A stretch of DNA of 64,000 nt from Amoebophrya sp. A120 (GCA_905178155.1 CAJINV010000009.1:979415-1043414); one strand, 5' to 3'. Numbered from the stretch's first letter, positions 31,321 through 64,000 are shown. Numbers and translations: made by a program. Notes: generated from the letters alone by a model not told the origin.

Positions 31321-34300
31321 TCACTGACGTCCTGCGTCCTGGTCCTGTAAAACCTTGCTATTGTCGTAAGCGAAGTAGTAGTCCAGAACTAGCCAGTCGT
31401 CCTCTGCGTGTAGCATGAGCAAGCGCAGCCAGCTGATTTTGTACAAATATTTTCCCGGCTTCGCCCGTTTTCGCAGGTCGTTTTTCTCGAAGGTGGCAAG
31501 CGTGTGGAATCGTGGTATGGGTCGCTGCGACCGACGGTGGAACCGCATGGGCGGATAGAACAGAGGCTGCGAAGTGAATGAACTTTTTCCTCGTTCACAT
31601 TCCATGCGAACATCAGGTTCGTCTTTCAATGCGGCGGAAGAAGTGGAGAAAGGATCCGACAAGCGCCTTCCCTTGGTTTGGCGGGCATGAAACTCCGCGG
31701 GCGTCTCGATTTTCTGCACCCGGACTTTGACGGTAGTCGTCTTCAGTGGCGGTTTGGTTTTCCTAGTACTGCTCGGGGAATCCGACTTATCCGAATCCGC
31801 TTCGGCGTCGTCTTCGGATGATATGGACGACAGGGATGAGACGTCCGACACTTCGTCTACTTCGTCACTATTCTCACTTTCTTCTGAATCGTCTCCCGCT
31901 TCTTCCGCGTCCTCTTGCTCTTCCTTGGATGCAGCACCGTCAGTGTCACTCGCGTAATCTGAATCTGCCTTCTGTGCAAGTTTGAGTGCTTCCCTCTTGA
32001 ACTTGATCTTCTCTTCCTCTTGAGTGATTGTGGTTGATGGAGTCAATTTGTTCTGCAGATATTGGATTCTCATCTCCTCTTTTACTTTTCCTTGTGTGGC
32101 TGGTTCTTGTGCAGCAAAGGGCTGCGTCGAAGCCGAGGGGACAGCAACAGTGTCTGAATGAATAGTCTGGGCCGGATTTTGATATTGTTGCTGCTGCATC
32201 ACCGCAGCTCCGGCAGCGATGGTGTTCATCATGTCGCTTGCTTTACCCGCCACGCGATATTTATGCCACCAGTGGGTTCGTAAGTTTCAGAAACAAAATC
32301 AGAGAATCAGTGCGGCTATTGGAAATGGCTTTGAAGTACCATGAAGTGTCTGTATCGCCACGGAAACCAGTTTCAACTGGTGATGTCTTCGAAAAAAAAA
32401 CATGTATGTTGACACCGTAAGTATGCGTCATGCTGACCATTACTTCTAGAAAATGTTTCTCCACCAGCCTCAGCTTTGCTTGTGAAAAACGTAAGTAATA
32501 AGAAAAAAAAAAGCGACACTGGCAAGACAGCATACCGCCCTTCGAAACACCCATCTGGGGAAGTTTTTGCAGTCTGCATTTGCACCTTTTGCAATGCGCA
32601 TCGTGCTACCTGCATATCGCACTTGCATACTTTCAGATTTGAAACTTACCAACCTGAAAATTGCATACTAGAACGGATTCAGGGATGTGCTGTCGTCTTC
32701 GAATGATCGTTCAGGCTGCGAGGATTTTTTTCCAGCAATCTTGTTTGCCGAGGAAGAAGTAGACGACACGACCATTGCGTTATCTGTTTTCGTTATGGTT
32801 GATCTTCTGCTTTCATCCGTTTTGGCTCCCCCAGTACCGTGGCTCTTCTTTTTGCATTTGCCTGTCGAGGTGCCTGTGGCGGAGTTAGAACCATTTTTAT
32901 TGTTTGCGTTTTTATTGGTACTCTCGGATATTAGTCCCGTCTTCGTTCCAGTTCCCTGCGATTCACCTTTCCCGTTAAAAACCCCTGCGTTGTGGTATAG
33001 GAACGCGCTGCTTTTGCAGGTCGTTGTGCACAATCCCGAAGAAAACTTCTTCTGTGTCGCGGCCGTTGTCCCTACACCCTCGAAACATCTCGTGTCAAAC
33101 CCGCGCGGGCACTTCTGTCGCTCCATGTGCCTCCTCTCGCTTTTCTTTTCTCTAACCCGCTTCTTTACGTACTCCCGCTTCGAGTCTGGGGACAGGGTCT
33201 TCATCAGCTCGGCGTCCTGAGCCGCGGTCTTCTTCTTCTTGCTAGCAGCGTCGTTTGTGGTGCTTGTAGTAGTTCCATTTGTATTTTTACCATTGCTAGT
33301 TCTGGCCTCAATGTTGTTGTCCTCTCCGTCCTCAGCTTTTTTCACATCTACATAATCCGTATCGGAGTCCGGGTCGATCTCGGCAAAGTCCGAATCTTCT
33401 GACGAGATGTCCTGGAGCGATTCGTTATCGAGCTGGTCTTCGCAATCTGTGTCGATGAATCTGTCTTCCGACAAGTCGACTTTCGGCTGCACCCCGAACG
33501 CACAGCCGGCGCACCAGTGCCGGATTTTCAGGTCCGCGATCCCGTTTTTTCGTGCCTTCTTGAGCGCTTTTTCGATGTCCGCCATGCCGGGAAAGTCCTG
33601 GGCGAAGATGTTGCCGACACGGACCCAGTCGGACGCGTAGCCGTAGAACTTTAGCTGCAGGTCCGCCTCCGGACGCGGCGCGTCCACGTGTAGGCGCACG
33701 TCGTGCTTCCGGGGTTGCTTGTTCCAAAAAACGCGGGAAAAAGCAAAATCGCTGTCGATAGAATATTTCGACTTGCTCCATTTGTCGCGCTGCAGCAACA
33801 GTTCTTGCTGCTGCGCGGCGGGAATTTTACGGCACTCGCGTACATGCCCAAGCACCGCCTGCAGATGCTGGTTCGCGACGGAGGGTTCGAAATCATAGGG
33901 ATTGAAAAACGGACAAACCGCGCCCCCCAGCCCGGGCCACTGGCGGTACTCCGACTTTTCCCACTTCAAGCGAAGGCACCACTTGCGGTACACTTTTTTG
34001 TTCAAGAACCGGTGGGCGTCGCGAAAGTTCTGGGAATGCTTTTGTTCCCGGAAAAACCTCTTGAAATTTTCCTCCAGCTCCAGTTGCGCCGCAGTCGGCG
34101 CGTAATGAAAGAGGCCTGACGTGGGGGAGGCGCTTGATAGTATCGAAGTCATCTTATCCACAGAGGTTGATGCACTGCCGTCCTTTTTCTCTACCGTGCG
34201 CGTCGCCTGTGCTTTGTTTTCGGCAGAAGGTGGAGCTGTGGTTGAATTGCTCGTATTGTTGGCTTCCTTCGACTTTTTTCTGCCCTTCTTTTTTCCTCCT

Positions 34301-37300
34301 CCGGAAACAACCGTAGCTGCGTTCGAAGCAACACCAGCTGTGGCAGGGTGAGTGGCGCTCGCATGATCATCGTCTCTACTTGCAACAGCTGCGCCCTTGT
34401 CTAGCTCAACACCTTTCCCACGCCCACCTGCCGTCTCGGTAGAAGTTGCAGCAGCGGAAAGATCCGTTCTCGTTTTGCTCTTATTCTTCGGGTTTTGCGT
34501 GAACCATTTGTAACGGAACCAGCCAAGGACGTCCGGCTTCAGGTAAGTCCGCTCGGAAATCTTTGGAAGGTAAGCGCTATCTTTGAAATCGGCGTCCGGC
34601 ATCCGCACCCAACCATCTTCAGGCGGTAGCATGTGCCGCACAAGATTCGCATATTTCTGGTTGCCATCCAGGGTGACAAACTTCTCGTAAGCGGAATACC
34701 CATCCGTGTCCTCCTCGCACAAGGACAAAGGCGAGGAAAAAGAATTCCCTCCGGACCCTTCCTTCTGCCACTCCCGCTGCGCGCGGCTCCACCGGTACAT
34801 CGTGCTCCCTCTACTCTTTCTCGTCGTACCGCCACCCTCTGTCTGTTTTTTCGCTTCTGCTGAGTCGGGGCGCGGGGCGACCTCCCGGTACATCATGCAG
34901 CGCGGCTTCACAGACTCCCCGGGTGCGCGATACTTTCCGCGCAGACATTGGGCATCAAAATTCAGTGCAAACTCCTGCTGGAGGAGCAAGTCCAAGATCT
35001 CTTTTCGCCGATGGCGCCGTGCCTCTTTCATGCTTTCCACATGCACAATCTTCGGTTTCACGACCTTTTCCCTGGGCTCGAGCTCGTACTTGAGCCTAGT
35101 ACAATCGTAGTAGTTGATCGTGGGACTGAGCTTCGCAAGACGGACGGCTGGCCTCACGATGTCCACCAGCTGGATGCAGTGGACGAAACACTTGTTCCAA
35201 TCGTAGAGATAGATCAGCCGGTCCTGCTTGCGGTTCAAAAACAGCCCCAGCTCGTAGCTGGCGTAGTCCAAAACCGGCTCAAAAAGATGCATGTCTTGCT
35301 CCCGACACTCCCCACCATGGTCGCGCGCGCGAACAGGGCGGGAGCGCAGCTGTTAATTGATAATTTTTGGATACAGCTGGAATTTCAAAAGTCTGTGGCC
35401 ATCGCGCTTACGTCCGTTCGTTGTGCACGACAAGAAACGAACCTGAATTATTAGACGGAAAAAGTTCTTAAATGCGAAGTACTCTCTTACCTCGCAGTGA
35501 TCTGGCGCCATTGTGTTTGTTGGTCCAAACATCGCTCCGTCTGTCTGATCGAAGAAGCAACCGCTCATGGTTTGCCGGCTGTAGCCAATGACCGGCTTCA
35601 GTACGTGCTCGGAAAAATCATCCAGCGAGATCCAGGCGGACACCTGGATCTCGCGCCACAACAAAGGTGCATCCTTGATGCCACTTTCCGTGTCTTCGAA
35701 CAGGCAAAAAGGCCCGTCTCGGAGGTCCTTTGTCGCGGCCTCTTCTTCTTCGGTCTTGATGATGCCGCCCCAGACCGGGCTTTCTTTCGTTTCCCGCATG
35801 CGCGCCCCCCGGGTAGTCTCGTCCTCCAGGACAGGCATCCACACCCGCACCACCAGATCGTGTTCCAGTAGTGTGAGATCCGGGCAAGGAAGCTTGTCAG
35901 GCCTCTTGATTTCGAGGGCAGAACTGTCGCCGTCTTCTTCCACACCTAGGGCAGTTGTCGACAACCCTTTATTTGAACTGCCTGTGGAGGAGGGTGAGCC
36001 TGAAGCTGAACCCCCGCTGGCACGAGCGAATGCACGGTCCTGGTCTTCGTCGTCGTCCTCCTCTGCCGCGCTGTCCAAGAGACACAGCAGTTCCTTTCGT
36101 TTCAAACTCAGCAGTTCGGCTTTCCGCTGAGCCCGCAGTTTGTGGTATTGGATCTCTGGTGGCGTGAAGAAATTGGAATCGCGCACATACTTATTCATCG
36201 TCCGCATCCATGTGGGGCGAGAAGTAGATGAAGAGCTCATTTTACCTGAGCCGGTTGATGAAGATGTCGCGAGGCTTGGATTTTTTACGGCCCCCTTCTT
36301 GATGACGGACGAGGAACTACTGGTGTCAGGGTTGATATCAGCGCGCGCCGCGGGCTGCTGAAGCTGGCGGAATTCTTCCGCAACGCGCTTGTTTATCTTT
36401 TCGTCAGGGCGATCCGTCGCAGGCGTAGCGGGGCTCAGAATAATTCCTCTTTTGTTGGACACGATAAATTTCTCCAGGTACCCGGCTAAACCCCAACCGA
36501 AATGAATCCCAGTGAGGGAGCTGGGTAGAGGAAGTAAGGCGTCTTCTTCGTTGCAGATCCAGGCCTCGACATTCAACGTGGATTCGCGCTGCACCCGCTG
36601 CAACTTCAGAAAACCCTTATTCTCGGGGTGCTCACCCACCATCACCTTTTCGGGCATCTTGTGCTGAATGCGCTCCACGAGAAAATTCTCAGGCTGGTTG
36701 TCGGAACTTGCTTCATCGCCAGCATCCAGGAGCAGTTTTTTCGTTTTCTCCCCGTCGTTCCCCGTTTCGTCAGCTCCTTTGAGGGCAGTCGTGCTATCAT
36801 CAACATCAACTTCTTCCGCAGGGTTTGACTTGGTCCTCGTGAAAAACCCCAGAAGGGAAGTTGTAGACGAGTTCGATTTGTTCGCTGGCGAGGGTTTAGC
36901 CGTCTTCTTCGCGACTGCTAGTGGTTTTGGGTAGTTATCCGCTTGTTTTGCCTTTTCTTTTTCAAAACTCTCGGAGGAAGTTTTTCTTGCAGGTCCTTCC
37001 TTATGCTCTGAAGTTGTCCTGGTCGTGCAGCGGTCATGCTTGACGAAGTGCTTGTAGTATGTCGCAGCCATTTTCAGGTCCTTCCGCCGCTGCGAATTTT
37101 GCTCGTCGTCTTGCAAGGCAAGCACCTGCACGTCCTTCCCCTGTTCCTTGGTCGTGCGGCAGAAAAGCGGGCACAGTAAGCCGATCAGTATCAAATGTAA
37201 AAATGTCTGGGTCTGGAAACTTGTGGTGCTGGGTGGCGTCTCATGATGAGGCTAGAGATGGTGGCTCAGCATGACAAGTTTCTGAGCTCCTAGGTGTTGC

Positions 37301-40300
37301 CTATTCTGCATGACAAACTGCGCTTCTGCATCACAGAAAAACGGAGCTCTTGGGTAACGTGCATGACAGATCTAAGAGGTATGCCAGACATGCATGACAA
37401 ACATGAATTCTCCCAGACCCAGACATTTTTACAGTTGATAATCAGCAAGCAGTGGCAATAGCTGGTGGGATTCGTCCGGTAGCAGTACAGCAGCTCATGC
37501 GGCTTGTCAAAGGGTGAAAACGTCAAATGCGGCGTCACGGCCTTGTACTGCACGCCTTCTTGCAAAAGCTGCTTGCTGTTTTCCCACTTGTTGAAAAACA
37601 GCGAGAGGCTGCGCCGCTCCGCATCTAGCCACTCCATGACGTTCTTCTTTGACTTTTCCTCATCAATCTCACCGTTTGGCAGCGCGACCAGACACTCCCG
37701 CGGCGGAGGTTGGCCGAAGAGTTCTTCCCCGAAAAAATTTGTGAGCTTTGCGGCGCGACGCTCCAGCGGTGGGCTGTTGAGATCAATAGCTTCAGACTTG
37801 ACTCCTTGTTTTTCTGACCACTTATTCTTGCTTTTTGCAGTTTTTGTTGTCGCCGTCGCAATAGTCGTGGGGGTGACACGTTTGCCTGCCGCAGCGGTGT
37901 AGTCTGACAGACACGACTGCGCGTTGCCGCCCGCCACGGCTTGCGCAATCGAGTCTACCATAGCAGAGAAGGAGGCAGAACGATCATCTTCAATCTCCAC
38001 GGTTTCCAACATAACGCGTAACGGAGCGTCATCATCTAAAACCTTATCCAGCATGTAATACTTGAAGACCGCGAAGTCCACGAGGAAGTTCTGCAATTTC
38101 GTTTTGTTTTTCGTGACTTCGTCTATGAACTCCTTGTCATCCCAGACTGTGAACGATTCGGACAGCCGCGGATCTGTTTGCAACAGCTGCTTCTGGCTAA
38201 ATTTGAAAGTGGGCACAAAGGCCCAACGCGGATTCTTCGCCTCGTCGATCTGCTTGTACTGGAAACTGAAGAAGTGCGGTTCCAAAATTTTCGCGACGAC
38301 TGTAGGGTTGCCGTTGAGCGCAGTGGGCGTTCGGACCTGGACGATGCTGTCACTCCACCCGTTCTTTCCCGCGACGTAGGTGATCTCGTTCGGATTTTTC
38401 GAAGGTCCAGTTTTCGTCGACTCTTCTCCGTCTTGGCGCCCGGTGTCCAGCTGCGATCCGGAGCCTGCCCTCGTTTTCGTCGTCGAAGTTGTTTTGCAAC
38501 CTTTACCCTCTGGTGGTGCAGCTTGATCGGCCCCAGCTTTCTTGCACAATTTGGCCATCGCTTTGATATTCGTGGCGGCTTCCGCCTGCAGTTCCTCTAC
38601 AGTGGCGTTTTCAGACATTGACGCGATGCGTCGATCCATTGCTGCTACGTCGGAGGCACTATTGCTCCCTGTATTTTCAACGCCGCCAGCATGCTCTTTC
38701 CGTATTGCAGTCAGAATGTCATCGAATTTGAAATCATCCATTTTGCCCTTCAAAGGACTGAGGGAACTGGTTTTGTCCAGAATCGGCATGACTTTCTCTA
38801 CTTCCTTTTCTTGCTTGGCCTTGGAGGATGTGCCGGCAATAGTCGTGGCATTCGTCGCTCGCGCCGCCGTGGAGAAGGCACAACGGCGCGGGATATTTTT
38901 CATAACTATATTGTCCGACAAACTTTTTTTTGTATATTTTCGCGGTATATATATATGGTGCGGGATATTTTTCGTGGTATTGTCCGACAAAAGATGTCCA
39001 TTTTCGCCGTCCTCTGAGCGGGTGTGGGAAGAATTTTCGCCGTCCTGCATGGACTTCGGAGAATTTCGCTGCGCCCTCGAGGTGTTATCTTCGTCACGAC
39101 TTTTTGCGATGCTTGCGTCCGTACAATCTTTTCTGCCGTCCCGTACTTCATCTTTCTTCTCTCCCAGTGGTGGGTGCCCATCGTGAGTTTCCTGTGATAG
39201 GACGCCACCCTCACTTGCCTCCATTGCGCCAGTAATAAAAACTTCAAGAGCGGCCGAGTCGATGGAGCCAGGTGGCCCTCCTTGTTCCTGTATGATTTGT
39301 GGAACGACCTGGCTCAAATAACCGACAAATTTCTTCGGCCCTAAGTTCATCATTTCTTCTAGCGAGAAGTCTGTAAGCAATCTCTTTCTCGCAATGTCTG
39401 TTATGTCGCCGAAACTTTTCCCCGGGAACAATGTCGCAAAGTCTGTTGCAGAAAAATCCTTTTGGAAAGGGTCTATCCCAAAGGTAGCGCCGCGCGCCTC
39501 CACGTGGCCCATTGCGTCCTTCCTGGCAGCAGACGCGTCTTTCTCCGACTGCTGGGATGAATTGTTCTTTTCCTGCAAACTCGAGTTAGGCGAGTTTCTC
39601 GCCGTGCTGGGCTTTCCGTCGTCACCTTTCGCGCAGATGTAGTTTCTGTCCTCCGTGCAATCGTTTTCATCGCCTTTCTGTGTTTCGTCTTTCTTCTCTC
39701 CCCGAAGTGCCGGCTCATCGTGGCTTTCTTTCGATGGAACGACGCCTCCACTTGCATCCGCCGCACCTCCACGTAGTTTCCGTGTCGTTTCGTCTTCCGT
39801 GCCTCCGATCGATACTGAAGCTTTCAGTGGAACGACAGGAACAGTTTTTGAGTCTTTCTCCGGCAGCTGACTTTTATCGGCAGTCATGTCCGCGAAGGCG
39901 CTTTTTACCATGCTCGCTGCGACTTCCAAAAACCGGGCCATGGCGTCTTCCAGAAACCGTGCCATTGCGTATCCGAAACCGAACTCCTTGAAGGCCGAGT
40001 CGTCGACTTTCCCCTCTTGGTCGGCCGGTTTCGGTTCGACTTGAAGATTACTCGCATTTATTCGAAGCCGGCTCTCCTCCTTGTATCCCAGCAGCACCGG
40101 ACGGTTCTGAAGCTCTCCGCTCGCCCGCAGCTTCTGCACTTCGCACGTCATATGGAACACCGCATCTTGGTCGAACAACGTTTTCCCCTGGTTGTCTTCC
40201 TCGGCTAGGAAAAGGCAAAGTTCCTGCAGCATCACCTGCAGCTTCAGTGCGCAAAACCCGGTCGCCTGTGCCATGGAGGCGGGATTGTTCTGCAGCTCTA

Positions 40301-43300
40301 GGGCATCTGCATCATCCAACAGGTCCGCAGTGGCCGCGGAATCGGAACCACTAGTACTCTTTTTCGAGTACGCATTTTTTCGAGTCACCTGATCCCACCA
40401 ATCGTTCTTCTGCAGGCGTGATGTACCCCCGGATCTCCGCTCTAGCTTGGCCCAGTCTTCCAACGCCAAACGCTCCATGTCGGCAAAATACCCGTGGTCG
40501 TCTCGCAGCTGCTCTTTCAGTGCGCACATGGGGAAAATCAGAAGGTCTTCAGTCGCGTCTCCCAAGTCGATCTGGAGCTCCGCGGGGCGTCGACAAAAGT
40601 CCAGCAGGGTTCGGCGAACGTGCTTGCGTTGCGCGTCCAGGTTCACAAAGTCCCAAAATTCGCTGTTTTTCTGCGGGTCGTCGATTTTTTCAAGCAGCCG
40701 GTGCAAATACAAATTATTCCCGTAGACGCCGCTATTCATCAAGATTGCGTCGACAACATCGGGCGTTCTCGTCACAGCTGCGAGAGGCACCGTGTAGGTG
40801 GCAGGCGTGTCGTAACCCAGGCCATCTTTACCAGCTTCCATAGTACGGCGAACGTCGCGAGCGGAGGGCTGCAAAGGTTATCCAGTGCAAAATTATCGCA
40901 CTTGTACTTCTAATCGCAGTCACGCATGACAGACATTTGGCCTAGAAGGGCAAGACAGCATTTTACAAACTGCATCTTTGTTCATAGTCATGCCATTTAC
41001 ACTAGTGCAATGCTAATGCATTTACAAAGCATAACGCTAGCAGATCCTCGATTTGCTCATATTCGCCAGCCGGATTCAAATACAACTCCTCGTCCCACCT
41101 CAGAGCAGAGTTCTTCTTGTCGTCGTTGCGGCCAGAGTTTCGCGCAGTGAATATCTCTGGTGGCTTTTCAGCACCTTCTACCACTATGTTCAATTTTAGC
41201 AACTCTCTTCGTAGGCGCGGTCCCAGTTTTGCCGTCGCGATGACAGGCAGCCTGTCAGGGCAAGGAATCTCACAATGCGCACGGTCAAACAATTTTCGCA
41301 TGTGAAGCCCGAATCGGAGGTTATGTTTCTTCTCGAGGAGCTGGTCCCATTCGAACGCCAAGCGGAGCTGCTTACTGTACATCAACTCATTCACCTGGTT
41401 GCTGCCGGAAGCGGAGGAAGAGGATGAACCTGGTGCATTGTCGACAGTTGCGGCCGCGGACCTACTCGCAGACGCGGAAGTAAAATCACCGGAAGGAGTT
41501 AGAAAGTCGGTATCGCTTGCATTGATGGTGCGGGTGAGTTTCCCGAAACCTCCACTAGCGTCCTTCGGCTGGTGTGCGCCGGTGTGTCCTCCGCCACTGG
41601 ACTTGAGTTGTGCGTTGTGACCCCCTCGACTGCCTGCTCCGGTCACCGCTTTGCTCGCGAGCGACTCAAGCAGCAACTGCTCTTGCAGCTTGCTCTCCAG
41701 CTCTTTGCGTTGCTTCTCCTCCCGACGGAGGCGCTTGTTTTTGGATTTCTTCCCCGTCACGGTCGTTGGTAGTTCGGAAGAAGTGGACGACCCTCCGGCT
41801 GGTTGTCCTCCCCCGGACGCCGCAGCTTCCTCGCCCTCCACTGCTTCCGCAGCAGAAATCGATGGCTGGGCCGTTGTGGATACTTCTGGAACCGCGGCAC
41901 TTGTTCTTGCGTTTAGAATATCCGACGGCGCGCCGTTGGGTGCACCCTGCACGGAGTTCCATTTCCCTTTGGAAGGTGCGGCTTTCGGAAACAATTCCTC
42001 CACCGGTCGCTGCTTTTCCAAGGCTTCCAAGAACGCGTTTTTGTAGCCCCAGCGATCCGCCCGCTGGTGGGACCGCCACTGCAGCAAGGCCGTGTCAAAG
42101 TTCGGAAAAAGCCGCTCGCCCTCGGGATAGCACTCCTCGTCGCGAACGAGCCAGAGGTTGGGCAAATTCCGGTTCTCCAGGTCCGTATCCGAGGGGTCGA
42201 AGATGTAGCTGTCTTTGATCAACCACAACAAAAACGCACGGGCCTCCAAAGCGTAGCCGAAGTGCTCCAGGCCTGGGCCGGCGTCCGGGTTGATGCGGTT
42301 TATGTCCTCCACACTCTTCCAGTTTTTTGGAAACAACTTCATTTCAAAAATCCGCTGCACGATCAGCGCCCCGAGCTTGCTGAACTTCAAGGTTCGACAG
42401 GTGGACCGGTCCACCTCCTGAAAGAGTTTTAGTTTTTCCTTGGGGCGATTGTCTTCAGTCTTGTCAGTGCCCGTCGCATCGTGATCCAGTCGGTTGATCA
42501 ACGTCCCTGCGTGGTGCCAGCAGCGAACAAATTGCGACAAATCTCTACGCTGTTGATGTGCGGTTGCAATACTGGTGGCTGGTGATGTGTTATTTGCACT
42601 GGCAGACGAGCCGTTGGAGGACGTTCTTTCTCTTTCAACATGATCCTGAGCAAGAGCATCCTCCAAGTCCGAGTACCCTGGGTACTTTAGAACGACCGGT
42701 CGGATTGGTTTGAACAGCCGTTCGCTAGCGGTGAAGCCCGGGAGCTTGTCGATCTTCCGCGGAACTTTCGGGTCGATTTCGTCCCGGGATCGCAAGTTCA
42801 ACAGTTTCCGGAGCCGCGAATTTTCGTCGTGCATGTCGATGTCGCGCTTCCGGCGCTTGTAACTCGACGCGTGCTCCGGGTGCGCGCCGTAAAAGTGCTC
42901 GTTGTCGTACATATGGGGCACCCGGAAATCGCGGTGGATGCTGTCGTACACGACCCCCGTCGTTTCCCGGAGGTACTGGCCGTGCAGGGTTTCGAAAAGA
43001 CTGATCACCCCGTCGGACTTCAGCGTCCAGCCGTCCTGCCGATCGAAGGAGCGGTTGCGCGTCTCGTGGTCCGGGACGGGGAGGATGTGCTCCGCTTTCA
43101 CGTTTTCGATATCGAGGTAGGCCAGCGGAACCGGGTCCGCCGAGCTCATCCCCTCTTTCAACCCGTAAAACCCACTGTGCTTCGGGTCCCGCACGTTCAG
43201 CGTTTCCACTTTGTGCCGAAAGCTCGTCTCGTCCTCGAAGATGAAGTGGCGGCGGACGAACTCGCAGAACTGCTCCGCGCCCGTGTGCACGTTCCGCGGG

Positions 43301-50855: not shown

Positions 50856-52403
50856 TTGGTCCGGCGAGTATTGGTTCTTGCTTTTTTTGCTGGTCGAATT
50901 CGGAGTCGATGTTTTCTTCGCCGTGTTCGTCGTGCCCGTCTTTTTTCCATTTTTCGCATTCGCTCCACCAGCGCGACGTCCTCATCCAGCTTTGGACGCA
51001 TCCTTGCACGAGCCTCCTGAAGATCCAGTCTTCGATGGCGTTTGCATCGTCCACGAGGACGAAGCTGTGCCTAAAGTCTGTGTACTCGGTGAACTACCGG
51101 GATTCGCAGTGCTCGTCGCAGACGAGATTGCGCCCGTAGTACTAGAATTCCAAGTGCCTCAGCGTTTCGTCAACATGCTCGAACGACGACGACTGCTGGG
51201 CCAGTCGAGCCGAAGGGGGGCTGGTACTGGATTGAAACACATCAACATAACACACAAGCACAACTACAGAAGTCTTGCCAAAATCAATAAAACTTGCCAC
51301 TACCACAAAGGCACATCCATGTTTTTTTTCAACATTCCTTACCCTCGTCGCTCATGGCATGACCTTTCAAATACCTTCTTCTACTGAGAAAAAGAGTAAC
51401 AGGAGCTGAGTCTGAACGACGATGGAAATCAGATGAAGAAAACGAAAAGCCTGCAGGCATATGGTCCACCAGATCATGAAATGCCGAAACTCGATGATCT
51501 CGGAGCCTGTCGGGAGGCTCGTATGAGGATGATCGGGTCACTGCTCCTGTAGGGGCTATTTTGTTGGATCTGGAGCTGGTCCTGGTGCAATAGCAATGCC
51601 CAAGGAAATAACCACGATCGGAGGACCGACGAACGAAACAGGAGTCACGAGACAGGTACTCAGTCGGACTTTTCTTCACTCGGGGAGATGAGAGCGAAAA
51701 ATGCCCTGCTTTCAAGAGAGAAATCCAAAAGCACAAAACAAAGCGCATGCACTGACGATGATCCAGAACTCTTTGCGTTTGCAAAAAGAACGAACAGGCG
51801 GCTTGCGCCCGTCGAAACACTGACACTGAGAGGGACACTGAGCATGTTGCTCGCTTTCCATAAAAACTGAGATTCGTTTCTTCGCGTAGAGAAGCGGTGG
51901 CCTCCGGTGCCTCAAAATAAAGTGCGTTGGTGGGTCTGCAACTACAAACCACAAAGTCAATCGCGTGAGAGCCAGAAAAATCATCGAAGGTGAAACGGGT
52001 GGCATAGCGATTTTTTTATCCTATACTGGTTGCTCGAAAAGTATCCACAGACTTTAACTAAGTATCAACAACGCCTCTCTTTTCAGAAACAGGTGAAACG
52101 ACAGCGCAAAAGATTTTCAATCATGATCAGCACCCTTATTACAAGCTGATCTTAGATCCGTTTTACCGCTTTTTGTTTTTTAATCATCGAGATCGCCTTA
52201 TGTGCTTTTGATATTCATTCACTTTACAACTCTAATTATTACCTTATCGGCCTAGTATTTCGGTCACGTTAATAACACTTTGGAGTTGGACGCAAGTGCT
52301 AGGCATGGTCATGAAAACGGTTGAAATCGTGGCTCTGATATTATTTTCGTCACATGCTAAAAGTGGAAAAGTCCAAGAGCAGACAAAGAACTTGCCCGAT
52401 CCT

Positions 52404-55254
52404 CTAGATCAAGTTCTCCTCGAGATCTGGGTTGCTGGTCAAGCGAGCTTCTTTCCAGCCGTACACTCCGCTCGCAACGACGAACGCCATCGCCACCCAG
52501 GCAAGGCACGTGGAAAACGACCACATGGAAAAGATCGCCCCCGAGTTGTCAGAGGCAGGGGACTCGGTTTTCTCTACCAGTAGCTGTTTCATTTTGGGAG
52601 CCAGCGCCAAATTTTGAGAAGCACGGGAGGCTGCTTCTGCATCAATTTTACTTGCTCCGGACGACGTGCTAGTCGAAGACGCCGTCGCGGCGACATGCGC
52701 AGCCGTGTTACCGCCAGCGAGCGCCACTAGCGGAACTTCCTTGAAATCCTTGGACTCAGGTGCGGGCGCGTTATCTTGCATGTCGAAGACCACCTTCAAC
52801 GGTTCATCGGCTTTACCCGGCGCGAACAGTTGGAAGTCGACGAAGCACGGCTCGTCAAAATAGCCCTTGCTCGCATCCGCATTCCCGCTTTTGCCCGTGA
52901 CACAACCATACCTCAGTAATTCAAAGAGATTAAATGCGTTTGTGCGTGCCACCTACACATACGTATGTTGCGCGTAACCACTACAGTTACAGGCACAGGC
53001 TCATCCGCGTTAGTTTTCTATAGCCAGATCATATTTATTAGTACAAAAGTGCTAAAAAAATACCAGACATAGATCATCGGCGCGGCTCCACCGCCTCCGT
53101 AGGCGACACTTCCGAAACGCGATGGCGCGATGCCGGACGAGATTCCGGGAGCAAAAAAGCTCTGCATCCCGATTTTCCCGAGCAGAGTAGTCATCTCTTT
53201 CGGTGACTCCGGCGTCGCGAACACATTGTAGGAGTTGTCCGCGTACACATCGTCGACGAATGTACCCCACTTCGGAATGGTATCGATCTTCTGGTGCAAA
53301 TTGTCCCACTTTTTGCTGAATTCCGAGATGTCCTTGGGCACGGCCTGCTGCTTCTGATCTCCTTTGTAGAAGCCCATGGGAATGGAAATGTCGCACTTGA
53401 ACTGCCAACCGTTGCTGCAGCTCTTCTCCTCACTCCCGGAATACTCGTAAATGTAGTATTGGTGGAAGCACACTCGGTCACTGTCCCCCATAGTGCACCA
53501 GTCGTAGAGGAGAAAGAACGGCTTCGTCGGGTCCGCGTAGCCACCTTTCGCCTGTCCGATGTAGGGCCCCTGCCGAGAGGGAGCTGGATAGGCTGTCATG
53601 GTCGCGAACGACTCTGGTGTGTACAGAAACATCGACTGCAAGATCGCCTCGTGGCCACAGAAGCTGACCATGCTCCCCTTGTCGTACCCGTAAACACAAG
53701 CGTCGGGCGCGTACCAGTTTTCGATCAGCTCTGTGCCCTGCTTCGAGTCCCAGCCGTGCGTCAGCACCACGTGTTTCATGTGCTTCATGTGTTCCTCGGG
53801 CGTGTCCGCCGGCGCTGGCACCGCCTCGACCACTTTCACCGGCGGGAGCTTGACCTCCGGTTCGGGCGCCTGGAATTCGTACACGATCTTGTATTTCCCC
53901 TCTTCATTCTTCTGCACGAAAAAAATGTCGATGAAGCAGGGCGGCCCCAGTGCTGGGTCCTCGTAGATTTGCCACTTCTTCGGGCCCCGCAAGTGCTCTA
54001 AGCACCCGTACCACATGGCAACCGCCGGTGCTGTGGACCCTTTCGGCGTCTCGGAGAACAACACCGTGCCCCGCCGGAACGCGCTGCCCACGCCGTCGAA
54101 GGGCGCGAAGAAGTCCAGAATTTCGCCCTTCTTGTTGGAAAGCACCTGCAGCGACCAATCTTCCGAGCCTGCTGCCGGCAACGGGATCGTCGTGTAGGCG
54201 TCGGGGGCGTAGGCGTCTTTGAGCAGCTTCCCCCAGGTTTTCCCGTCAAACGCTTCGAGTACGAGAAAAACGTCCTTGTACAACTCGGGCGGCATGGCCA
54301 CGGGAGCCGTCACCGAGCCCGTCGGCGATTTGTCGGCGATGGTCAGACCGCCGTGGAGCACGGCAAAATCCGCTGTGATCTTCCACTTTTTCGCGTCAGG
54401 GGAGTACTTGTAGACAAACGCCTGGTGGTAGCACCCCGAAGCACCCGGCAACGGGCTCTCCAGGCACCAACTCCACTGCCCAAATAGGGGCTTTTCCGGG
54501 TCCGTCATCTTCCCTTCTTCAAGGAGGGGCCCGACTGCGAACTGCGCCCCTTCCATCAATTTCATGGTCTTCCTATGAACTGCAAAAGCAACGTACTCGT
54601 ATAAATGCATTACAAATTTCCTTAGCATCAGTGATAAAATTTGTAATGCGGATTTACCTTAAGACAAAAATTTGTAATGCATGATTCCAATACGAGTACG
54701 ATACTTTTGCACAGGATACTTCCACTGCTCCTTGGGGTATTGCTGCAGGGCAGAAATCATGGCCGCGCGGTCGCACACCTGCACCATCGGTGGGCTGCCC
54801 ATCCCGGGATTGGGCTGGTACACGCAGGCGTCTCTGGCGTACCTGTGAAAAACAAATAGAAGCAAACAGGATGAGGCTTTTGTTTTCGATATGCTTTCGC
54901 TTCGTGAGCCGTAGCAAGCAAGAATACTATGTGGTGCAAACACACTTGTTGTCATTGATGCTGGCCCGGAATTATGGCGCTTTTAAAGGGGGCAACCCAT
55001 ACCCAGTTCGAGGAGTGAAAAGACACACTGACGCTCACTCTCCTCGAGAACCAAAAGTCCTCGTGCTCCCTAAAACTAGTGTGGTACCATTCCTCCAGGT
55101 ACTCTTGGCCTTCCTTTGTGTCGAATCCCCGCGTGCCGGCAGTTTTCCAATCATCAAAGAAGCTCTTGGCGTCCGGCGGAGGCACTCCCCCGGCTGCAAC
55201 GCCACAAAAGGTCGCCGAAGCGGCAGGCCAGAAAATTCTACTTCTTCGGGCCAT
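52404..55254 (-). CDS. Secreted/surface protein with a duplicated module (four NTF2/SnoaL-like units) and a C-terminal TM segment, 4 exons
   Basis: Signal-like N-terminus. Recurring WYARDACVY/YAPDAY/WYAPDACVY/YADNSY, WYGC twice and PCF(I/V)D twice; TM segment near the C-terminus. Introns 54843-55087 (GT-AG), ~54574-54723 (TIR type) and 52912-53063 (GT-AG). Fold assignment is an inference. Confidence 0.75.
54574..54718. mobile_element. TIR intron, 145 bp, TSD CTTCC
   Basis: TAT...TGCAAAAG(C/T)A(A/T)CGTACTCGTAT...TGCATTACAAATTT inverted at both ends. CTTCC at 54569-54573 and 54719-54723. Removal gives EQWKTMKLMEG. Confidence 0.92.
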
Positions 55255-55849
55255 GAATTGAATGGTGCTTTTATTCTTGAGGTACAAATTAGTTAAAATG
55301 TTCGATCGAACAGGACGTTAGCGCCTACAAGTAACAAAGAGGCTGATCCCTATTCCTCCTGTAGGTAGTTCTATAGCCGGGTGCGCACACTCAGACTCAA
55401 GACTTCTGCAGGTGAAGATCGCCCCATTGATTTGATACCGTGGAGAAAATCCGGCACGAAGTTCGGCAGATGTTTGTATGCGGAATGCGCTTCATATCTT
55501 TATCTGAGTAAACTTAAGTAAGTACATTGACCCGCATACTCAAAAGTCATTGCATCCCTCCATCGGGGCACTTTGCTTCTCTCGTCTTCTGTGACGGGCA
55601 ATCTGCTGTGGCAGCACCGATTGGAGGCAATATTCAAACCGACAACAAATCTGCGTCGAGGTATTCATTCATTTCGTCGAGAATTGGTGAGATTAACCGA
55701 AATTTTTGGATGGAGAAACACGAAGCGGTGGCTGTAACCACATGTTGGCTTCCGTCTCACCTGTACTTGCTGCGGTTTTCGTTTTGTCCTTACTCGACCA
55801 CCCGGTGGATTCATCATGTTTATAAATTGCATTCGCTTTTTCGGCAGAG

Positions 55850-57424: not shown

Positions 57425-58089
57425 GAGGATTTGCGAAAGTAAGGAGCTAGCAGTATCTTACGTATCGTCCCAGTCAGTGTAGTTCCAGGAAGTCGAACTG
57501 ATCTAGCTGCAAGTAAAATGCTGTGCCTCTTCGAAATGCGCGGCTAGTGGAGTCCTATCGTTCTAGTGAAACTTGAAGTCGCAGTTTTTATCATAGTGAA
57601 GTAGAACGTAAAAACAGCCCATGGATCACATACTTGCGTGCCATACAGTAAACATGCACTGTCCTTACACGATGTACGTGTACCTGCCCTGCGATTCAAA
57701 TCATTGCTTTTGCGGCCCTTTTTGTGGAAAATGAAATCCACACGAACTCAAAAGCAAATCGCCTGGACAGTAGAACCAGTTCTATCTTCTCGGCTGACCA
57801 CAGGAGTGAGGACAACATCATGATCTTGAAGTTTTCTGATGCATAGCTCAGCACATCAGCTTTCATTTTCAAGACCAGTTCCAGTATTCCGCTTGAAACT
57901 TTCACGTCTTTTTTTTTTTCATCATGACAGACACTTTTGGTTCGATTAGAAGAGTGATAAATTCCGATCGGTTCGCGCCAAAAGCACGACCTTCAACGGT
58001 ACTGTAGCTCTAGGTTTAAACATAGAAAATTGCATCGCTCAAGAAAGAATTTTATGTACTTGTTACGGCATTACCCAAATAAAATGTTT

Positions 58090-58875
58090 TCACTGCTGAG
58101 TGCAGGTTTTCGAAACCCTTTCCCAACCTTTCGATAAGTTCTTCATCTCTTCTAGGGAGACGGGATAAGCACCAAGAACCTTTATGGATTCCGAAACCGA
58201 ATCACCTCCCGCCACCTCCGTCTCCTGTTCCTCCTCTGCGGATTCTTCTTCAGCAGCTTCGTCCTTTACTGCTATTGTGGCAGGAGGAGGAGGAGGACCT
58301 GTACAACCTTGTGGAAGCTTAGCGACTGCCGAGACAAAGTCTGCGATGTGCTCCTTCCCCGCATCGGGCACAGTGTGCATGGGTAGATCGATTCCCACCA
58401 ACGCTTGCCACTGCTGCGGCGACATGCCAGGCGTCATGTATAGGCTGTGGTAGGCCTTGTCAAACTGAGACTGGGGCGTGGGGGTGGCGAAAGCGTCCAT
58501 TCCTGGCAGAGAACTAAGCACCGCTTGGTCTCTCGTTTTTTTCGGCGCACCAGCCTGCTTCGAGGCAAGCGTAGAGCGAGGTTGGCCATGCATCAACGGC
58601 GACACAAACTCGCGCACCAAGTAGCTAAGGTAGGGTACTTGGTGGAAAAATTTCTGCACAGCGGGGTGCTTTTGGATCATGTACTTGTTTGACGATGTGT
58701 CCTCAGTAGAAGTCGTCTTCCCCGGAACTCCGCTGTGGTCGAGCCAAAGGCTGGCCGCGCAGTTTTCCAAACCAGCTATGGGAAGGCTTTCTGGAGGCAG
58801 GCACTCCTGCTGCATCAGGTACATGAAGGGGGCGATGTGCGGCCGCTCCGTTTCGGACCGAAAAATTTGCCCACA
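58090..58875 (-). CDS. 3' exon of a hypothetical gene; upstream exon lies beyond the window end
   Basis: Protein-like frame CGQIFRSETERPH...KTCTQQ. The ORF-track extension to 59118 lies inside a TIR element and is probably not coding. Confidence 0.65.
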   Translation of the reverse strand, partial: CGQIFRSETERPHIAPFMYLMQQECLPPESLPIAGLENCAASLWLDHSGVPGKTTSTEDTSSNKYMIQKHPAVQKFFHQVPYLSYLVREFVSPLMHGQPRSTLASKQAGAPKKTRDQAVLSSLPGMDAFATPTPQSQFDKAYHSLYMTPGMSPQQWQALVGIDLPMHTVPDAGKEHIADFVSAVAKLPQGCTGPPPPPATIAVKDEAAEEESAEEEQETEVAGGDSVSESIKVLGAYPVSLEEMKNLSKGWERVSKTCTQQ

Positions 58876-58935
58876 TATCAAATGGAAAAATGTCTGGGTC
58901 TGGAAGATTGCCAGGTTTGTCATGCACATTTTGCA

Positions 58936-61900
58936 CCTTGATATTCCCGATTCACACTCGGGGGAATTTTTTCTGGCTTGGAGACCCCCTCCCACCCCCC
59001 CGATCTCGGATGTGCGTGAGCCCAAGAAAGTCCAAGGACTTGAAACATGCAAACATTTATGCGTGAGGGCTGCAGAGTCGCATGAAAAACAAAAAACTCT
59101 GAGCGAGCTGCACCGCACATGCGCGACCGAACGAGCGAGAAGTAATCAACAAGAAACTAGAGATAGAGGTGTGCGGCACCTCAAGGCACTTATGATGGCG
59201 ACGAGAAGATGAAGTAGTTTTGTTTTTTTGAATTGTCAGACATTTACGTATTACGGTATAAAACAGGTCAGCACTACCTCGATTGCGGTGTTTGCAAAGC
59301 GAAGCGGTAGCTGTAAGTTGAATTTTTTGTTCGTCATCATGGAGCTTTAGTGTGTCCACATGAGTGTCGCGGGATCTAAGAGCCCATCTATGCGCCCGCC
59401 TCATGGAGCACGCTGTGTGCCAGGAACGGGGCCGGGCATAAAAAGCGGGGTGCGGCCCCTTGAAATAGGTGGACTTATTATTAATTATTTCTTATATGCA
59501 GCCAAAAGAGAGCACACACGCGCGCGGTGAGTGGGTGGAGTCCTTGGGTGCGGCCCGACCGAAACCACCACTGCACCCGCCTAGAGATAGCAAAAAGAAA
59601 CTTGGTGCTTCCGGGTGCGGCCCATCAGCGAGTAAATAGAGTGGCTGCCTCTAAGGGCGGTAAAAGGTAGAAGCTAAAGGCTAAAAAGTATCTATCAACG
59701 ACCGACCCCGATCAGCCCGTTGGCAAGACGAAAAAAAAACATCTGCCCCTGCAACAAATGCGGGGTCCGCCACCTAGCGCTACAAGGATTCCAGAAGTAA
59801 GCAAGACGACGAGAAAGAAGTAAAAGGGTAGAGACCTGCATCTACGTGGGAACGCGGGGAAAGCAGGGAAGATCCGGCATTTCAGCATGAGGAGCGTACG
59901 AATTTGCGATCTAGCTCCATCGGGGGCGGTAGGTACTCACGAACGAAGAGCAATGGCAACGAAGTGCAGCAGTCTTTCGCGAGACCAAACGAGATGGCAA
60001 GCGAGGTCCGCGCGCCCCCCCTGGAGGTGAGATGCGAGGGTGGCCCTGTATTGTGATCTGCAATCTGCATTAGACCACACAGGAAATGAGGATGTTGGAG
60101 AAGGATCCTAGATGAACATGAGCGACACTAAGGAACGCTCCAACAACCTCAGCCAACCACTGCCCTCGCATTCACAAGAGACCTGCCAAGGCAGACTCAA
60201 CTCCGGAGAATCTTCCCGAAGCCGACCTCTAAGTTCGGCCTGGTCGGCAACGAGGCAATGTCCTCAGGGGCCGTTAGGAACCTCCCGAAACAACCGTCAA
60301 CGAGCTCCAGCGCCAGGAAGCCGCTGACGAGAGAAACGCACAGACTGTTCCCAGTGGCAAGAACAGAAAGGCAGGGACATAGGTGAACCGACAGTGACAC
60401 CAACTCGACCAAGGTAACCCAGAGTTCCGGACCCGGGGAACACTGGGGACCACGCGGCAGGAGCGCAGCACAAAGACGCCTGAAGTGTTCCCAACCGCCA
60501 GTCAAGCAGCAGCCAAAAGTCAACGGAGGCAGCAGCAGAAGCCACTCAGGTACTCCACCGAAGACGAGAGGAGCCGCAAGACCCAGAGCAAGCTCCGACG
60601 GCCACAACAGACGCTTCTACTGTCGCAACACCACTGGGGACGAAGACAGAGGGCAAGGCAAGAGCCTCGCGCAACGGGAATTTCCCACCGAGCCATGTCA
60701 ACGACCTCACATGAGAAGGCGCACCAGGACGGCCACGAGAGGGGATAATCTAAGGCACCCCGCATTCAGCCCCGTCTACACCACCGAGGACGACGAGCAT
60801 CTCTCGTCATTATGTTCACCGGATCCATCGTCAAAAATTCACGTCGTGCACGCCGCTCTGCCTCGAGGCATTGTCACTCGTCCGCTAGACACACTCCCAC
60901 TCCACTTCGATGGAAGGCCAGACATCGCGACAACATAGCACAGCAGGGTTAGGAGTGGCTGTGCTGAGTCGCGTCTGGAGAGGGAAGCTTTAAGGAGCAC
61001 CAGGCTGCCCGATTGTCCTATTTGGGCGAGTTTTGTTGTCGCCCCCGACCGCCCCCCGTCGCGGTAGCTGGCATCACTTCTGCTCGGGGAAGCCGTCTAG
61101 CCCTCGGCCATGGCAGAGGCTTCTGTCTGTCAATCGCATACCGGGCGTCGCATGTGTACGCGGCTAAGGTTTCCGAAGTTGCTGCGTGTCGTCTTTCGCT
61201 CGTAGCAGATAGGTTTGTAGTAAGTATGGAACTGTAAAAGGCAAGGCAGAAATGTGCTTGATCCTGATGCGAGAAGGCTGGAATTAGAGCGGCCATGGCT
61301 GAGCATGACACGACTTTCACTACATCTTCCGCAATACATGAGATGTCAGCATGACAAACCGATGTTTTTGTAGTTTGATTTTCTATAACGCATCACTTGA
61401 CATCCAAGAAAACAGAAGGAAGAGGAAGCTAGAGAAAGACCGAGCTTCTGCCTTGACTTACGCCTCAGATATTTTGTTGGATCCATCCGGCGATGCCGTG
61501 GTGGAAGCTTGCCCCCTCCACCCTGTTTCAACACTACAAGAACTGAGTGCGCCGGCCCACACAATTCGAAGTGATATACGTTGGGCTCCTGCGCTCATGC
61601 TCGTCGTCAGCGTCGATAGCTGCGAGCAACACTTATCTCATCGCCGGATCCGTCGCCGCTCGCTCTCGACGGCACTGGCCTCCGCTCGCATCCGCCGCAT
61701 GGCTCCGCCTAGGTGTGGCCGCGCGACAGCAAGGTCAGAAAGTCTTCGCGCCGCAACCTCGTAAGCCATTCCCACATCGACACTTCTCGTGTACAGCGGC
61801 AGAAACTAGGCGCGGAGCCGCAAGTAGTGAGTGTCTGTTTGTCTTCAGACACGACCTGAAACTGGAAAACTGCTTCGCTGAGCTCGAGTGCGAGGTAAGC

Positions 61901-63806
61901 CCGGGAACGTAACCCGCCGCGCAAACTAGGTGTGGGGCCGCAAGTGACGCACGCCTGTTTGTCTTCAGACACGAGCTGAAAATGGAAAACCACTGCGCCG
62001 GACTCGAGGACTACCTGGGAACTTAACTCGCACCCCTGGCGAGGGCGAGCAGAAACTAGGCGCGGAGCCGCCAGTAGTGAGTGTCTGTTTGTCTTCAGAC
62101 ACGACCTGAAACTGGAAAACTGCTTCGCTGAGCTCGAGTGCGAGGTAAGCCCGGGAAAGTAACCCGCCGCGAAAACTAGGTATTGGGCCGCAAGTGACGC
62201 ACGCCTGTTTGTCTTCAGACACGAGCTGAAAGTGGAAAACCACTGCGCCGGACTCGAGGACAGCCTGGGAACTTGACTCGCACCCCGGGCGAGGACGGGG
62301 GACGCGATTTAGCATTAGAAGAGGGCCTTGCTGTGGGGCTGGCAGTCGATGTCCATCAAGGCCGCGCTTGTTGCTGGATAATCTTATGGTCGCGCTCGGG
62401 ATAGGAAAGCTGGTGCGTAGTGAGGTCTGTTTACTGAGGAGATATACGTTCATGTTATGCGGATCGCCGATCTGAAAAACGCATGACAGAAACACGCCAA
62501 GCACAGGGAGGCAAGGCCGAACAAGACACAACCGAGAAAAAAGAAAACGGAAACCCAATACGCAAGTGGAAAGCGACATGTGCACGGACCTCGCCAGCAG
62601 CTTTGAGCAGACATATCTTGCCCCAGTTGACGACGCGGAGGATGTGTATCGGTTCTCCGCGTTGCACTACCAATTGCACCCAAAAGGAGGGCGCCTCCCG
62701 TCCTGCAGCTGTGCACTAGCATAGACACGTTTGCCGTAGCAACGGGATAGACACGTCTTCATTTTTTCACTGCGAGGAGTCGCCGACGGGCGCGTCCGCT
62801 TTTAAATCGCTCCTTGTCCGCTCGTGATTGCGCTCAGCTCTTGGGCTCGGTCTGGATGCGTCGGCTGTCATCTTGTCCTCATTTCAAGAAACCAGATGTG
62901 TTGCCAGTGGGGTTACATTGAAGTCTCTCACGCGGAGACCAAGACCGCTCCGCTTGCGGCCACCGGGCTTGCGCCTGCGAAGAGTCTGACCCGGCTTCCG
63001 TACGTGGCAGGACCTAGGAACACGGCGACTTGTTCCCAGTTCACAGCAAGCGTTCAACTTTAGGTCGTAGGAGGCTCGCCCAGGTGAAGATGTATAGTAG
63101 CAGACGCAGTCAACTTAAGTACAAGGCAAAGAGACATCGCTTAATCGAACCTACTCAGTGCTTTGAGGTCGTGCTCAGTGCTTTGAGGTCGTAAGCGGCC
63201 CTAATTTTCAGAGACCGAGAGCACCGCCAGAAGGGAGCCCGGCTAGCCGCGTCTCGCGGATTTACGTCCACGCCCATCTTTTCATGACCCGACTGCAGAA
63301 GGCCGGGGGCTGGTTAGCGGGCTGCCGTCACCACCCTGCGTCGCGGCCCCTTCGACGTCGTGCTCCTCCATCGGCACCACGACGACTTCTATTGATTCCG
63401 GTGGCGCTCCCTGCACAGGCGGGAGGCTAGGCTCGTTTTGGGAGGCGCGTTGCGTGTTCATTTCGTCGATCTCGCTGTCCTGCGTCGCGACGTGACATAG
63501 GAACTCACTAATTGCCTGCGAGGGAGCATCGAAGGGGTTCGGAGCAACGTTCTGCGGATCCGATAGCAGCGCATCGATGCGACTGATGTCGATCAACTCG
63601 TGTAGGCCGTCATCGCTTGTACTGGCTCCCACCTCGTCCCGGAAACCTTCGTGGGATCTCGTGATTAATGCCGCGAGAGCCCGCGCTTCTTCGTCGTCAA
63701 CTGGCCGCTCTTCCCGCTCTTGGCGGGCCGGGGAGGGTGGAGGCCATTCGTCTTCCCCCAGGCCTTCTGGCCCTGATGCATCTTCCCCCAGGCCTTCGTC
63801 TTCCCC
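58936..63806. mobile_element. Nested ~4.87-kb insertion flanked by the 15-bp direct repeat CATGCACATTTTGCA
   Basis: Exact repeat at 58921-58935 and 63807-63821. No intact transposase, RT or integrase ORF inside. Confidence 0.65.
61799..62293. repeat. 250-bp tandem duplication made of ~120-130-bp subunits (ABAB)
   Basis: GCAGAAACTAGGCGCGGAGCCGC at 61799 and 62049. CTGTTTGTCTTCAGACACGA occurs four times. Confidence 0.93.
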
Positions 63807-63809
63807 CAT
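63282..63809 (-). pseudogene. Acidic/Pro-rich ORF fragment abutting the insertion boundary
   Basis: ~175 protein-like codons. The ATG falls inside the 15-bp direct repeat, suggesting a 5'-truncated or captured coding fragment. Confidence 0.4.
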
Positions 63810-64000
63810 GCACATTTTGCATGACTCCTGATGTCTGTGATGCATGCCCTAGCATCACAGATTTTGTGAGGGCTTCCTGATGCCTATACCGCATGACAAA
63901 TGCTCTTTCCGTGTAGCAAAACTTGGACTCTCTTTGCTGCTCATGCAATACAGATTTTTTTAGAATCCAAAATCAGCATGACAAGTTGATTCTTCCAGAC

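Follow-up and report, generated by a model that had tools for sequence, protein, structure and literature searches.

The sequence analysed here is a stretch of 64,000 nucleotides (nt) from Amoebophrya sp. A120 (GCA_905178155.1 CAJINV010000009.1:979415-1043414), referred to below as the window, in which eight elements that start with TAT interrupt coding sequence. Seven of them are complete, and the eighth runs beyond the last letter of the window (Table 1). These elements are members of the introner family already published for A120 (Farhat 2021, PMC7789003). An earlier note, made from the sequence alone, had listed the same seven elements with TAT(C/G) starts and ATA ends, plus an eighth starting TATC at 58876, all of which we confirm; it correctly named the Amoebophrya introners as a known parallel, and the window proved to be that very genome and family. 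A 502-residue exon matched an A120 protein at 100% and an Amoebophrya A25 protein at 44% (two matches among 7,999 candidates), and a second exon, from the host gene of element 8, matched another A120 protein, P0003, at 100%; the window is accordingly from A120 or from a strain that these genes do not distinguish from it.

Table 1. Elements, host genes and canonical introns in the window. TIR, terminal inverted repeat; TSD, target site duplication; motif, GCAT(G/C/T)ACA; flank scores are matching letters out of five.
Feature	Coordinates	Strand	Remarks
Element 1	32262..32667		406 bp; flanks ATATT/CTAGA, 2/5; spliced as 32258-32668, or shifted by at most 2 nt
Element 2	37189..37440		252 bp; 28-nt TIR; exact TSD ATCAG; 5 motif copies; TIR family that of element 8
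Element 3	40879..41033		155 bp; decayed TIR; flanks 3/5; removal deduced from the frame only
Element 4	44045..44480		436 bp; perfect 32-nt TIR; exact TSD AAATC; 6 motif copies; junctions without RNA cover
Element 5	44749..44857		109 bp; near-palindromic; exact TSD TCCGG; no in-frame stop if retained
Element 6	45632..45952		321 bp; TIR of ~35 nt, tip eroded; flanks 4/5
Element 7	54574..54718		145 bp; strong hairpin (z -7.3); exact TSD CTTCC; 150-nt removal fits RNA contigs and protein P0001
Element 8	58876..64000		member of the element 2 family; right end predicted at ~64022; window ends inside right TIR; likely one intron of ~5.15 kb
15-bp direct repeat, left copy	58921..58935	+	bounds insert in element 8
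15-bp direct repeat, right copy	63807..63821	+	bounds insert in element 8
Insert of ~4.9 kb	58936..63806		left part several-copy, right part about two-copy; 250-bp tandem duplication
Host gene of elements 1-6	31321..50981	-	at least 5,936 codons after splicing; MYND match only, weak and sub-threshold
Host gene of element 7	52404..55254	-	A120 protein P0001 (767 aa); A25 orthologue P0002
Last exon, host gene of element 8	58090..58875	-	residues 887-1147 of A120 protein P0003
Canonical GT-AG intron	35350..35490	-	skipped in X4 and X6 contigs
Canonical GT-AG intron	52908..53059	-	by shift within 5-nt repeat; skipped in contigs that lack element 7
Canonical GT-AG intron	54839..55083	-	by shift within 5-nt repeat; deduced from an undisplayed 120-nt piece

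The seven complete elements share their termini, vary in length from 109 to 436 bp and have a GC content of 32-49%, compared with 52% for the window. The flanking pentamers are identical in elements 2, 4, 5 and 7; the other three pairs, which the earlier note had taken as eroded repeats, agree at four (element 6), three (element 3) and two (element 1) of five positions, the last being near chance. The terminal repeats had been described as TAT...ATA, and those ends are indeed present, but the inverted repeats of elements 2, 4, 5, 6 and 7 extend for about 25-55 nt and not for 3 nt, and no inverted repeats within 8 kb anywhere in the window are longer than the four formed by the ends of elements 4, 5, 2 and 6. 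Overall, an inverted repeat between the ends, of 8-20 nt or more as in the A120 introners, is clear in six of the seven and decayed in element 3. On folding, element 7 gave a z score of -7.33 and element 1 one of -1.17, the ends of the latter being paired in both the minimum free energy (MFE) and the centroid structures. As previously noticed for most elements, an A-run lies just inside the start: TAT, about seven variable bases and then at least three A were found on the left ends of seven of the eight, element 1 being the exception. We counted four TAT..ATA pairs in the window that are 40-1000 nt apart, have an inverted identity of 14/20 or more and lie between exact 5-bp repeats; in 100 Markov resamples such pairs averaged 0.01, with never more than 1 in a resample. 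The elements display the features of miniature inverted-repeat transposable elements (MITEs), namely TIRs, a TSD, short length, lack of coding capacity and many copies.

A scan of the window for additional TAT..ATA elements of 60-700 nt disclosed no convincing further member, and all eight elements lie in its second half, with none convincing in positions 1-32000. A candidate at 56876-57047 was discarded (0/5 flank match, and within an open frame), as was a 68-bp mini-element at 58876-58943 (flanks matching 1/5), and a rule by which the central base of the TSD would be A or T was dropped because it holds in only five of eight cases. A genome scan for SATA ends, as had been proposed, would miss element 6, which ends in AATA.

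Excision of elements 1 to 6, each with 5 nt more, together with one GT-AG intron, yields a single frame of 5,936 codons whose only stop is the final one, and six of the seven elements would bring in-frame stops if retained. The earlier statement that removal of the element plus 5 nt restores the frame in all seven is to be read with three qualifications: the frame sets the deletion modulo 3 only, so that +2 nt fits equally to +5; it is uninformative at element 5, which has no in-frame stop; and at element 1 both cuts flush with the element ends leave a stop, the frame being open only for cuts 1-4 nt before TAT. As also noted before, no register of element plus 5 nt gives GT..AG, nor GC..AG, in any of the seven. 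Registers ending in AG are possible at element 7 (GA..AG) and element 4 (AT..AG), and no end dinucleotides are common to all seven. A Pro/Ala difference at element 3 would reveal its cut register, with Pro for a cut 4-5 nt before TAT and Ala for one at 0-3 nt.

Removal from RNA, which the earlier note had suggested checking by transcript mapping, was observed at elements 1 and 2 and is implied at element 7, while elements 3 to 6 were without cover. In one contig each of runs X4 and X6, positions 32258-32668 are absent, that is, 411 nt corresponding to element 1 plus 5, with two letters shared at the cut. At element 2, the 257 nt of the element plus 5 are skipped in X4. As a control for spliced RNA, X4 and X6 contigs also skip the GT-AG intron at 35350-35490. 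In the case of element 7, X4 record 16 and X6 record 22 align over 53060-54568 and again from 55084 onwards, and between the two blocks lie 120 letters that are not displayed; the segment 54719-54838 is 120 nt long, preserves the frame and has 5-nt repeats at its borders with both introns, so that, if the undisplayed letters match this exon, element 7 plus 5 nt would have been lost from the RNA. Both records lack the GT-AG intron 52908-53059 and are therefore spliced RNA. Furthermore, the frame spliced without element 7 equals P0001 over all 767 residues, and the A25 orthologue P0002 is gap-free across the junction (residues 97-98), which indicates that insertion plus removal left the coding length unaltered. 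X1, which we took as DNA because its depth stays even at about 44 through introns, was compared with elements 7 and 8 rather than with 1 and 2; in its contigs element 7 is retained with both flanks attached, and element 8 with its left flank. These results support the absence of the elements from RNA where tested, directly for elements 1 and 2, indirectly for element 7 and on one side for element 8, in agreement with the earlier proposal of MITE-like elements removed from RNA.

Reverse-transcriptase jumps across repeat-flanked hairpins are a known source of artefacts, and the skips could be of that kind rather than the product of splicing: a hairpin with a short direct repeat is a favourable layout, and all the RNA evidence comes from cDNA-derived contigs. 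We find this hardly credible, since retention would bring stops in six of seven elements, removal opens the 5,936-codon frame, the A25 orthologue is colinear, and element 1, which folds weakly overall and has only two letters shared at the cut, is skipped all the same. Raw RNA runs X7 and X8 left the window exons uncovered, with 80 reads in X7, nearly all on a TIR, and one read in X8. About 70 of the raw X7 reads carry the element 2 TIR (37189-37218) on other flanks and none the exons; they may come from a retained copy in abundant RNA or from a related strain with the same family.

Element 8 starts TATC, and its first 30 nt match those of element 2 at 29 positions, while the last 185 nt of the window align to the right part of element 2 and stop 22 nt before its terminus. 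Short copies found in X1 and in the RNA runs go directly from 58905-58933 to 63807-63833, and the joint 58920-63807 has 15 letters that fit either side; element 8 is thus a family member of about 261 bp that carries a 4.9-kb insert bounded by a 15-bp direct repeat. The alignments of X4 record 18 and X6 record 26 end at 58875, after which these contigs run on for 655 and 744 letters, respectively, that are not shown against this stretch, and no exon of P0003 falls within 58876-64000. Accordingly, the whole ~5.15 kb is likely a single intron whose far junction lies beyond the window.

Considering its length, its TIR family (that of element 2), an interior that is partly multi-copy in X1 and one 176-codon frame that scores as coding, element 8 might be regarded as a decayed master copy that formerly encoded the transposase. 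This is very improbable, because the short copies that jump from 58920 to 63807 across the 15-bp repeat mark the interior as an insert, and because the X1 contig carrying 63014-63773 runs for about 12 kb further into other sequence. In addition, none of 70 frames of at least 45 codons reached the Pfam cut-off, none of the six weak matches was a transposase, and the 176-codon frame had no match among longer proteins. The long element was consequently rejected as an autonomous transposon on its insert structure and transposase-free frames, and the long copies encoding a transposase that the earlier note had proposed to look for are not represented by this one long copy, to which the search applied. 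An IS481EU element with a 15-bp TSD was likewise ruled out for the insert by its termini, which start CCT and end CCC. Within the insert, 59203-60950 is an A-rich several-copy repeat (X1 depth 200-535, compared with 44) with diverged copies in RNA-type contigs, and 61799-62297 is a 250-bp tandem duplication (95.6%) with an inner period near 125 bp. The segments at 61225-61471 and 62481 show a TAT...AAAA start plus three copies of the motif and may be the remains of a decayed introner carried in a copied piece of the genome.

Evidence of mobility came from X1, in which 88 contigs end abruptly exactly at 54574 and 153 exactly at 58876, with flank agreements of 0.37 and 0.41, respectively, as for unrelated flanks. 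The summed X1 depth over the bins at these two positions exceeds 100,000, which is not a copy number. Variant copies and foreign flanks were found for elements 2, 4, 5, 6, 7 and 8, and none is listed for elements 1 and 3. Moreover, the interiors, held previously to be otherwise unrelated, are connected by family links and by a common motif, GCAT(G/C/T)ACA: 24 of its 30 copies in the window fall within the elements plus both ends of element 8, which make up 3.5% of the bases. Six of the seven complete elements hold 19 copies, compared with 0.49 (maximum 3) in 1,000 resamples, and the three canonical introns hold none. Repeated subterminal motifs that bind the transposase occur in other TIR elements; a role in splicing is an alternative for this one. 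We found no mention of the motif in connection with A120 introners, nor any link of IS3EU or IS481EU to them, in a literature search whose scope did not include subscription papers; for the motif, the Fig S25 logos and the sequence files may show it.

Sixteen of the 19 copies read UGU(C/G/A)AUGC in the transcript, and this prevalence of one orientation is a weak hint of a role at the RNA level. It could agree with a spread of the elements via RNA, by reverse splicing or retro-insertion of excised introns instead of cut-and-paste, a view to which the available text of PMC7789003 also lends itself, as it finds no A120 transposase and favours copy-paste. Nevertheless, we regard such a route as improbable in view of the 25-55-nt TIRs, the site-specific 5-bp repeats, the sharp common ends at many sites and the splice cuts of element 1, which differ from the element ends; besides, Dataset S2 of Gozashti 2025 (PMC12130899) classes most A120 families as TIR DNA.

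Since its two flanks differ, element 1 is informative on the cut register. The registers allowed there by the RNA are GT..TA, AG..AT and TA..AA, that is, cuts 1-3 nt before TAT, and the cut 1 nt before TAT reads GUAUGC, a normal donor by the usual consensus. With a cut at that place every element would start NT. In the published Table S4, the nine predominant A120 border pairs all start NT, and eight of them end AN, a mirror pattern; among fam2 introns (n=9,716), 68.8% start NT and 67.9% end AN. Because of this mirror pattern, and because annotated registers within exact repeats are the aligner's choice, the single junction of element 1 suggests a fixed N-UAU donor register as a lead only.

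A machinery that reads structure rather than borders would also account for part of these data: the same elements could be excised by an endonuclease plus a ligase that recognise the terminal stem independently of the spliceosome, as suggested for euglenid nonconventional introns. The lack of common end dinucleotides in the seven elements, the hairpin of element 7 and the paired ends of element 1 agree with it. So do the failure to detect U1 small nuclear RNA in A120, as given in PMC7789003, and the TIR-bearing euglenid introns that leave as circles without lariats (reviewed in PMC11282704). On the other hand, a good GU donor is among the registers of element 1, the frame requires the removal of element 3 even though its stem is lost, and the inverted and direct repeat (IR/DR) layout is also present in 15% of the canonical A120 introns (PMC7789003), which suggests one machinery for both. 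We therefore consider this route rather unlikely, although it is the strongest of the competing explanations. Consistent with a spliceosomal route, U2, U4, U5 and U6 are reported in A120 together with 83 of 89 spliceosomal proteins, all but 6 (PMC7789003).

We believe that the most plausible explanation, to which we assign a probability of about 0.6, is that these published A120 introners, multi-copy TAT...ATA inverted-repeat elements in coding exons that are absent from RNA where tested, were likely inserted as non-autonomous DNA transposons by a putative integrase-like transposase and are likely removed by the U1-less spliceosome guided by the paired ends. It brings together the structure of the elements, their many insertion sites, which share a sharp TAT boundary, the loss of the element plus 5 nt at elements 1 and 2 and the protein colinearity at element 7. 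The TA ends and the 5-bp repeat point to an integrase-like DDE enzyme acting in trans, which would bind the TIR and GCAT(G/C/T)ACA and make a 5-bp staggered cut, from which the flanking repeat would arise. The ends would then pair in the pre-mRNA and cuts would be made within both repeat copies; in that event one repeat's worth would depart with the element, and the coding length would be restored in either orientation. The 5' cut would most likely be 1 nt before TAT, at the donor-like N-UAU, and the 3' cut 4 nt past ATA, with no need for AG. A broader version would have a single rule, by which the U1-less spliceosome measures from the paired ends and cuts at these two places even when a nested insert of 5 kb lies between them, and would take GCAT(G/C/T)ACA as the mark of diverse families that are all served by one undescribed integrase-like transposase, characterised by TAT ends and 5-bp TSDs; it is a tentative proposal that we think doubtful as a whole.

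Several points weigh against the explanation that we prefer. X4, X6 and X10 come from one sample and may not be independent of the public annotation, and their status as RNA is a guess that is backed only by the spliced GT-AG introns. The skip of element 2 is seen in one contig of one run, and with zero contigs across the junctions of elements 3 to 6 there is no evidence either way for these. Family sequence next to foreign flanks was also met in RNA-type contigs, so that some copies are unspliced, lie outside introns or represent DNA carry-over. In element 3, the inverted repeat scored 8, which is not above background, the fold gave a z score of -0.12 and no end-to-end pairing was found. The motif was picked after the elements had been seen. 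Finally, along with reporting no transposase, the available text of PMC7789003 argues against general mobilisation by transposases.

As regards the host genes, a phmmer search with 1000 residues of the 5,936-codon gene against 1.84 billion representatives gave no matches. A TGA at 50982-50984 bounds this giant frame upstream, and the sole X1 contig there has another letter at 50984 (depth 43.6/43.6); the stop is probably an assembly error, and the frame would then be open for 58 more codons. The GT-AG introns at 52908-53059 and 54839-55083 lie between the 5-nt direct repeats ATACC and GTACC, respectively, and are possibly old insertions or carry ordinary AG|GT-type repeats. Elsewhere in the window, the minus strand encodes at 55850-57457 a DUF285 (Mycoplasma-type repeat) protein (E 4.8e-52) that was possibly transferred from a bacterium, at 16608-19322 a 904-residue frame with a sub-threshold endonuclease/exonuclease/phosphatase match and at 13217-15901 an acyltransferase divided between two frames.

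The window bears on the site and manner of cutting and on the agent that moves the elements; PMC7789003 marks the position of the intron border as unknown. The true cut position can be read from elements whose two flanking repeats have diverged, so that existing RNA-seq can serve to test the N-UAU rule, and the motif common to the interiors is a probe for the master element and its binding protein. A fixed register measured from structure, if true, would explain how GU-AG can be dispensed with by a spliceosome, whereby exonic transposon insertions become nearly harmless.

Comparison with known transposons showed a partial likeness to several groups, none of which is tied to the A120 elements by a transposase in the sources at hand. 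The TA..TA termini fit IS3EU/GingerRoot, whose TSD is, however, usually 6 bp, compared with the 5 bp of the four exact cases; the termini also fit the TNT..AYA ends of IS481EU, whereas the 5-bp TSD does not fit its 4, ~15 or ~25 bp, and Ginger2 has TSDs of 4-5 bp (PMC10045372). The earlier note recognised no superfamily with TAT ends and 5-bp TSDs. This agrees with Dataset S2 of PMC12130899, where 56 of 58 A120 families are without a named superfamily, but not entirely, since TA..TA ends are described for IS3EU/GingerRoot and fam38 is listed as 'Ginger, 5-bp TSD, TA/TA Termini', although the main text states that it lacks Ginger homology and termini. Among introns, the euglenid nonconventional and the Fritillaria non-canonical ones (PMC11282704) resemble the A120 elements in their TIR-paired ends, TSD-like repeats, non-canonical borders and likely MITE origin. 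Both differ in terminal motifs; Fritillaria introns use the spliceosome, mostly with AG-AC or AG-AT borders, and euglenid introns leave as circles by a route that is unknown.

The A120 families of PMC12130899 are closer, because they are mostly of the TIR DNA class, many measure 105-320 bp with TIRs of about 30 nt, and fam38 shares the 5-bp TSD and TA/TA termini; the window elements were compared with these families by description only. Such elements are limited to part of the genus (PMC12005148). The closest likeness is to the introners of PMC7789003. There, over 60% of A120 introns (about two thirds) are non-canonical, and 29,850 repeated introns make up 17% of the assembly; the mean length is 240 nt. 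Their IR motifs consist of TAT, seven less-conserved bases and at least three A, with direct repeats of 3-5 nt (5 bp in the legend of Fig S19). The window elements agree with them in organism, in the TAT start followed about 7 nt in by an A-run, in the hairpin of the IR, in the 5-bp direct repeat and in removal at non-GT-AG borders, and their lengths are near that mean; we found no defining difference. Neither the internal motif nor a fixed cut register nor introns longer than 1000 bp, which was the limit of the intron analysis, were found in the available text of that work. What is described here adds three small points to the published family: the constraint on the register, the motif that the elements share and the nested copy of 5 kb.

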